From IMG/VR virus record IMGVR_UViG_2537562191_000040, positions 1-13,968 of that record: a DNA stretch of 13,968 nt. One strand, given 5' to 3'. The position numbers were made by a program, and so were the translations under genes. Shown here piece after piece: positions 1,150-1,635 of the stretch (positions are counted from its first letter, which is position 1; every line of letters starts with the position of its first letter). Under the pieces are notes generated by a model that saw nothing but the letters and a program-made list of their open reading frames with translations, searched no databases and was not told the origin of the DNA. This stretch comes from a virus. Taxonomy: Duplodnaviria; Heunggongvirae; Uroviricota; Caudoviricetes.

Positions 1150-1635
1150 ATGACCACTATTACCAAAGAACGTATTGAATTGTTCATTAAAAATCCGGTT
1201 GAAAACGGGCTTACCCGTGGTGAACAAATGGAACTGGCACGGATTGCGCTGGCATCGCTGGAAGCAGAGCCAGTTGGTGATTTTTATGAATACAAACCGG
1301 ATGACTGGTAGCAGCGTTCGGCTGGAGATAAAGCGCCAAAATGGACGCCACCCTATGCCGTTTTTCCAGCGCCCGTAGTGCCGGAAGAAATGGATTTGCT
1401 TACATGCCATCTCGATGGTGTAACTGAAACATATGCTGAGGGATGGAACGCTTGCCGCGCTGCCCTGCTTCAGGGCAAAGGGGAGCCCGGGAAACAAGTT
1501 CGCGAATTGACAATGCTGGTTAAACAATTGGTTAGTCAACTGAAGAAAGCGAAACCGGGCTGCAAATTGCCGGATAAAGTGATGGACTACCTGGAGCGAA
1601 GCGGACTTATAAGCGTGGAGGATGTTTCACGATGA
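1150..1635 (+). pseudogene. Hypothetical phage early-region protein interrupted by an in-frame amber (TAG) codon at 1309-1311; alternatively two genes, 1150-1311 and about 1378/1390-1635
   Basis: The frame from ATG 1150 (MTTITKERIELFIKNPVENGL...PDDW) continues in the same frame after a single TAG into ...QRSAGDKAPKW...EEMDLLTCHLDGVTETYAEGWNACRAALLQ... The ORF track lists only the downstream part (1378..1635). Confidence 0.4.

Follow-up and report, generated by a model that had tools for sequence, protein, structure and literature searches.

Organization of the locus

The DNA analysed here, a window of 13,968 nucleotides, belongs to a lambdoid prophage of the Rac-site type in Escherichia coli O111:H8, and the gene under study lies after the replication genes and before the late-gene region. 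On the plus strand, translation of window 1150–1638 gives a frame that opens at ATG 1150, runs through 53 sense codons to a TAG at 1309–1311, and continues through 107 sense codons to a TGA at 1633–1635. A sequence-only reading of this DNA had described a 161-codon frame split by a single in-frame amber codon, which the translation bears out together with the in-frame position of ATG 1390; the frame is indeed open past the TAG to 1635, but the 108 codons counted there are 107 sense codons and the terminal stop. The features of the locus are:

1–812: 3′ part of IS1203 (IS3 family), with the transposase gene orfB ending at 770
1138–1143 (+): Shine-Dalgarno sequence AAGGAG serving ATG 1150 (predicted pairing with the 16S rRNA 3′ end, −8.7 kcal/mol)
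1150–1311 (+): open reading frame of 53 aa with an ATG start in the ORF listing; the truncated reading frame, 53 codons plus TAG, with the Eaa-type N-terminal module and the first residues of the variable middle
1249–1711 (+): mosaic segment near-identical to intact 167-aa alleles (sliding identity and SNP lists)
1309–1311 (+): amber codon TAG, derived from TAT (Tyr) by T-to-G at 1311 according to the homologue comparison
1312–1635 (+): stranded 3′ part, 107 codons plus TGA, with the variable middle and the conserved C-terminal module (ELTMLVKQLVSQLKKAKPGCKLPDKVMDYLERSGLISVEDVSR)
1378–1635 (+): open reading frame of 85 aa with a GTG start in the ORF listing, in the same frame as 1150–1311

From 813 to 12994, the window matches a prophage of E. 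coli strain E2863 with 100% identity. The left arm of that prophage is Rac-like (kilR, sieB, ydaE/F/T/V) and leads into genes for a DnaC-type loader, DUF1627, and DUF977; onward from these lie small accessory genes, a cytosine methyltransferase gene, a DUF1367-DUF1364-DUF1133 cluster, two tRNA genes, and lysis genes. The match ends at 12994, downstream of the lysozyme gene, and window 12995–13968 differs. The prophage is probably of the same type as Sp10 of the Sakai strain, which is integrated at the Rac site, encodes a DnaC-type helicase loader, is both excisable and transferable, and does not respond to induction with mitomycin C (Asadulghani et al. 2009, PMC2669165).

Among 5,426 complete genomes, only that of E. 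coli O111:H8 strain 7-54 11A (NZ_CP077574.1) shares the junction between IS1203 and the prophage at 812/813. The element inserted in an already frameshifted DUF4014 gene, the last part of which occupies window 813–874. This gene, upstream of the focal frame, is frameshifted in all carriers looked at and is additionally split by IS1203 in the window.

Downstream of the focal frame, window 1632–1715 (+) contains an unannotated ORF of 27 codons (MTWPEAFTTVGIAMAVALVVYSICRWG) that specifies a hydrophobic peptide of one helix. The start codon of this ORF overlaps the focal TGA (ATGA) and has a strong Shine-Dalgarno sequence (−9.3 kcal/mol). The ORF yields no PHROG match and is kept in every related locus; in the diverged locus L003 it differs by two nucleotide changes, one synonymous and one Phe-to-Leu. 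It is followed at 1716–1881 (+) by a remnant of a hokD-type hok/sok locus, in which no hok ORF is left. The sok model RF01794 aligns at 1757–1881 with 50.2 bits, below the gathering score of 59 (E = 4.9e-10), and only window 1716–1814, ∼100 nt from the first part of the locus, aligns with the hokD locus of L003. Window 1738–1800 matches well over a thousand E. coli genomes without annotation under the match.

Two Rfam matches above the gathering score lie adjacent to each other on opposite strands, upstream of a SASA-family esterase gene: the sRNA STnc100 at 8668–8860 (+; 145.8 bits) and the anti-GcvB sRNA AgvB at 8861–8922 (−; 96.5 bits). On the minus strand, an ORF of 172 codons at 1021–1539, inside an open stretch of 201 codons, overlaps the focal gene. 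This antisense ORF matches none of the PHROG profiles and was rejected as a gene, being probably the shadow of the plus-strand coding frame.

The two fragments and the Eaa-like family

From the base composition of the window, the probability that 107 codons stay open by chance is ∼0.002, and on the plus strand of the whole window only two places combine a single stop with at least 50 open codons on one side and at least 100 on the other.

Profile searches relate both fragments to one PHROG family. The 161-aa product obtained by restoring Tyr at the stop covers positions 3–192 of the 193 positions of phrog_660 (E = 1.6e-44). The fragment before the stop (residues 1–51) matches positions 3–60 (E = 1.8e-11; phrog_60 and phrog_3323 are also matched), and the frame after it matches positions 130–192 (E = 1.4e-27), so that the two fragments match opposite ends of the profile. 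Frame 1150–1635 accordingly reads as one full-length member of an Eaa-like lambdoid accessory family, phrog_660. Members of this family are small proteins that lambdoid and P22-like phages encode in their early regions. The open frame beyond the TAG is genuine coding sequence: it matches phrog_660 in this way and its C-terminal module has a dN/dS of ∼0.12. That value (0.12 against the diverged homologue of L003) indicates evolution of the C-terminal module under purifying selection.

A word-index search returned 5,821 related proteins, 40 of which were picked for near-full coverage of the query and aligned. The alignment reveals conserved modules at the N and C termini on either side of a hypervariable middle, and in this set, picked for its coverage, both end modules share one polypeptide in 40 of 40 homologues. 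The N-terminal module (M-T-x-I-T-K-E-R ... I-A-L-A-S-L-E-A-E-P) is present in the window frame, where it reads MTTITKERIELFIKNP...ARIALASLEAEPVG; I32, A33, L37, and E38 fall in invariant columns. The C-terminal module (E-L-T-M-L-V-K-Q-L ... Y-L-x-R-N-G-L-I-S-V-E-D-V-L-R) is present in the frame after the stop and includes ELTMLVKQLVSQLK. The penultimate residue of the window gene is Ser, as opposed to a nearly invariant Leu in the homologues. In the window the two modules do not lie on one uninterrupted polypeptide but are divided by the TAG at 1309–1311, and because of this separation the locus can be described as a disrupted phrog_660 member, that is, a pseudogene.

Among intact members of phrog_660, WP_000137958.1 of phage vB_EcoS-666R9 (URC10131.1, 167 aa) occupies the same genomic position as the window gene, after the genes for the DnaC-type loader, DUF1627, and DUF977. 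The window gene differs from it in having TAG rather than TAT at codon 54 and an N-terminal module that begins MTTITKERIELF... rather than MTELTKKQ.... Many homologues in the databases go under the name “Eaa protein” or “DUF551 domain-containing protein”. The first ∼40 residues of P22 EaA (317 aa, an “ea” early-region protein) constitute the same module (37 of 42 residues identical, dN/dS 0.33), and in both proteins a Y-A-x-P-P motif follows the variable stretch. The restored window protein has no match to DUF551 (PF04448) at E values up to 1; unlike DUF551 proteins, it ends in the ELTMLVKQL...LISVEDV(L/S)R module. The window gene is located rightward of the replication genes, unlike P22 eaA, the position of which we take to be in the leftward early operon.

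Information on function is sparse. The matched PHROG families are all labelled as being of unknown function, Pfam returns a single sub-threshold, spurious match for the restored protein and NCBIfam none, and a profile search of PDB sequences gave no matches. The AlphaFold2 model built from the 40-sequence alignment is weak (mean pLDDT 57, pTM 0.26); it folds first into an N-terminal helical hairpin (residues 6–38), followed by a disordered stretch (42–77) that contains the stop, and then C-terminal helices. Literature searches found no paper naming the three protein accessions, and a search on Eaa, DUF551, and P22 gave nothing on function. As a guess, the intact protein might be a small helical adaptor that pairs a common N-terminal module with interchangeable C-terminal parts.

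Other arrangements of the modules exist in the family. In L003 (positions 2051–2559; strain TW10590), a gene of 55 aa that consists of the N-terminal module only (WP_000207997.1) overlaps by 4 nt with a following family member of 114 aa, which carries its own N-terminal module. The 167-aa protein P0012 is a fusion of two genes of this type (55 aa + 114 aa). Tandem duplication, fusion, and splitting thus recur in the Eaa-like family.

Origin of the amber codon

The nearest relatives of the window gene are uninterrupted. A segment of phage vB_EcoS-666R9 is ∼99% identical in nucleotide sequence over window 1249–1711, past one mismatch at 1248; it has gactggTATcagcg in place of the window's gactggTAGcagcg, and its gene specifies a protein of 167 aa without interruption. 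Of the 102 matches that differ by one mismatch from the window around the stop, four E. coli prophages were sampled, and all have TAT at the site, each in a single 504-nt CDS with WP_000137958.1 or WP_032170691.1 as its product. TAT is present at the homologous position in L002 and L006–L009 and in 11 of 18 IMG/VR contigs; the other seven contigs have TAG, and neither a revertant nor a third codon occurs among the 18. The stop is therefore not conserved across homologues. At the protein level, Tyr is found at the site, in the motif W-Y-Q-R-S, in P0002–P0007 (162–167 aa) and in the more distant P0009, P0014, and P0018.

Over the 463 bp of 1249–1711, the window differs from the intact 167-aa genes at three to four bases, namely the one base that separates the sense codon of the close relatives from the stop (TAT versus TAG) and two to three others. 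Compared with L009, the nearest intact allele, the window has changes only at 1311 (G/T), 1628 (C/T, Ser/Leu), and 1688 (T/G), the last of which is synonymous in the downstream small ORF. The homologue comparison shows TAT (Tyr) as the ancestral state, from which the TAG arose via a single T-to-G transversion at 1311 in codon 54, because close and more distant homologues all have Tyr there.

The alignment of homologues from lambdoid prophages, which the sequence-only reading had proposed as its check, thus returned single uninterrupted proteins of 162–167 aa with TAT (Tyr) at the position of the TAG, and a consistent division into two proteins, with the stop conserved at this site, was not found among those aligned. 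The nearest homologues with TAT support the first of its three alternatives, a nonsense mutation that created a pseudogene. The description of that mutation as recent holds in part: divergence is low (3 SNPs in 463 bp), yet several STEC lineages and two mosaic contexts already contain the allele. The changes in the TAG lineage after the stop amount to one private substitution (1628, Leu to Ser) and one synonymous substitution in L011, which are too few for relaxed selection after the stop to be shown.

A different lesion was observed in L023 (IMGVR_UViG_2563366939_000004, minus strand). This allele keeps TAT and has a frameshift in the C-terminal module that yields ...KAKPAANCRIK*, which constitutes a second, separate inactivation of the same gene.

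Distribution and mosaic history

The exact 81-mer around the TAG occurs in 173 of 5,426 complete E. coli genomes, carriers including O157:H7, O111:H8, O103:H2, strain ST2747, and a seawater isolate. Complete E. coli genomes that match the 81-mer at 95% or more number 275; these comprise the 173 with TAG and the 102 one-mismatch matches. The TAG is no sequencing error, because the identical 81-mer recurs in these 173 independent genomes and TAG in seven IMG/VR contigs. Species-representative genomes gave no match to the exact pattern with NNN at the codon, and that collection is silent on distribution outside E. coli.

The TAG allele was found behind two different N-terminal modules. Module A (MTTITKERIELF...), the version in the window, was confirmed together with TAG in E2863, O157:H7 PA20, O103:H2 PV16-126, O111:H8 7-15 45A, and the swine isolate EL361, and it is joined to the shared segment in 167 complete genomes. 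No module A with TAT was found among the 5,426 complete E. coli genomes, in which the best match to a TAT-substituted query (99.6%) is the TAG allele itself. Module B (MTELTKKQ...) accompanies TAG in ST2747 and MB07011. All loci checked show the same linkage at the penultimate codon, Ser going with TAG and Leu with TAT, and in the E. coli loci checked for flanks the right flank carries the methyltransferase gene with TAG and a KilA-N gene with TAT.

Of the two recombination junctions, the left one falls within the gene, at the conserved IALASLEAEPVG motif (window ∼1243–1249), and the right one where the 27-codon ORF downstream ends. Because the allele sits behind two N-terminal modules, the TAG mutation is older than at least one mosaic recombination, a swap of the N-terminal module. 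The allele has travelled with a mobile prophage and is fixed in a widely distributed STEC prophage lineage.

Translation signals and annotation

ATG 1150 is served by the Shine-Dalgarno sequence at 1138–1143; only ∼4% of 20-mers in the window reach −8 kcal/mol. Predicted pairing at GTG 1378 is +0.6 kcal/mol, i.e., none. At ATG 1390 it is −3.5 kcal/mol with a spacing of 2 nt, a value that 27–46% of window 20-mers reach. Neither internal start is therefore predicted to have a convincing ribosome-binding site.

The prophage carries two tRNA genes in the window, at 7646–7721 and 7822–7898 (both +), with anticodons CAT and TCT. The former is assigned to Met by ARAGORN and annotated as tRNA-Ile by PGAP; the latter is Arg. 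No suppressor tRNA (anticodon CUA) is encoded in the 13,968 bases.

Database records of the gene are uneven. PGAP annotates 1150–1311 as hypothetical protein WP_000208018.1 and 1390–1635 as hypothetical protein WP_000365100.1 (81 aa), and it marks the module-B version of the TAG allele as “internal stop” in ST2747 and MB07011. Status as an internal-stop pseudogene has thus already been flagged by the annotation pipeline in some genomes, and RefSeq is inconsistent on one allele, with two “hypothetical proteins” in most genomes and an “internal stop” pseudogene in others. The two proteins are best read as fragments of one gene.

A 159-aa protein, P0001, is 99% identical to the window frame with Gln at the stop position. 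It was considered as a revertant or intact allele and rejected: its only retrievable contig (Logan contig SRR27176603_314, L005 positions 971–1447) has TAG and does not translate to P0001. The Gln is evidently an artefact of a gene caller using a genetic code that reads TAG as Gln. Large metagenome-derived protein collections with such calls contain false intact homologues and can mislead pseudogene tests.

Discussion

The frame at 1150–1635 is very probably an ordinary nonsense pseudogene of the Eaa-like family in a decaying region of the prophage, rather than a recoding signal or a new gene arrangement. Release factor 1 would end translation at codon 54. What the cell could then make is at most a peptide of 53 residues with the conserved helical module of the N terminus; missing from it would be both the variable middle and the conserved module of the C terminus. 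Little useful translation would be expected from the 3′ two-thirds of the gene, because a real ribosome-binding site is predicted for neither of the internal starts in this frame. Decay close to the gene supports this reading, namely the DUF4014 frameshift with its IS1203 insertion, the hok/sok remnant, and the frameshift in L023. The gene being dispensable, the stop allele may have come along with the prophage during its inheritance, transfer, and recombination among STEC lineages.

The last of the alternatives that the sequence-only reading had offered, two adjacent genes, would require that the 53-aa N-module peptide and a C-module protein of 81–85 aa started at ATG 1390 or GTG 1378 are both functional. 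PGAP does call both proteins in most genomes, splits and fusions do occur in the family (the 55-aa and 114-aa genes of L003, the fusion in P0012), and the low-confidence AlphaFold model sets the stop in the disordered stretch between two helical parts. However, this arrangement found no support at the internal starts, with no Shine-Dalgarno pairing at GTG 1378 and pairing at background level, at a spacing of 2 nt, at ATG 1390. The internal start lies 78 nt past the stop, which is far for reinitiation, the Met at 1390 is a plain internal residue in intact proteins, and the top matches include no homologue that consists of the C-terminal part only and begins with this Met. The L003 precedent is, moreover, a tandem pair whose second gene has a complete N-terminal module and in which the stop is at a different position. 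We consider a functional split gene unlikely. Synthesis of the full 161-aa protein by conditional readthrough, with an amber suppressor or near-cognate tRNA and the stop acting as an expression dimmer, is very unlikely. Its appeal is that the downstream frame is still fully open and that the base after the stop is C, the fourth base being one that influences the efficiency of RF1; yet an open downstream frame is equally expected of a young nonsense mutation with 3 SNPs in 463 bp. In the RNA phage Qbeta, a leaky UGA stop yields the A1 coat extension, and the window resembles such programmed readthrough in having an in-frame stop with a long open extension behind it. Relatives share a stop that is programmed, whereas the window stop is a sense codon in all close and distant relatives examined. 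The sole database “readthrough” protein, P0001, stems from a contig with TAG. The amber-suppressor host that had been proposed likewise drew no support from the window, whose only tRNA genes have anticodons CAT and TCT; amber suppressors are laboratory alleles that natural STEC would not be expected to carry.

The spread of the allele has to be set against the pseudogene reading: it is common (173 of 275 genomes) and has survived at least one swap of the N-terminal module, an observation that is compatible with neutrality. The truncated form might be tolerated as still working, or might even be favored, and the 53-aa fragment could keep a function, because stand-alone N-module proteins of ∼55 aa exist elsewhere (WP_000207997.1 in L003). 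If the truncation had instead been selected as a loss, the full-length protein being costly or harmful to the lysogen, the occurrence of TAG in 173 genomes and several serotypes behind two N-terminal modules would be explained, as would the independent frameshift in L023. Hitch-hiking on a transferable prophage explains the spread equally well, however: the 12.2 kb of window 813–12994 are 100% identical to the prophage of a different strain, E2863, and Sakai Sp10, probably of the same prophage type, is transferable (PMC2669165). STEC genomes are also heavily over-sampled, and the intact allele is kept in 102 genomes by the one-mismatch matches (TAT in four of four sampled), such that we regard adaptive loss as exceedingly improbable. 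Highly improbable, too, is a maintained two-state arrangement, in which the 53-aa N-module peptide acts alone and rare UAG readthrough or reinitiation supplies some C-terminal module; were it true, selection in STEC prophages would have favored the widespread TAG allele as a functional variant.

The pseudogene reading agrees with what has been described for the pool of defective prophages in EHEC, in which lambdoid STEC prophages likewise carry small inactivating lesions and are otherwise well conserved (PMC2669165). The focal gene goes unmentioned in that paper, and the words “nonsense” and “amber” do not occur in it. The biological weight of the finding is small, as it adds one more point-mutated accessory gene to the decaying prophage pool found in Shiga-toxin-type E. 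coli (STEC). The TAG/TAT pair, with the linked Ser/Leu difference at 1628, is a convenient marker for tracing recombination among Rac-site prophages.
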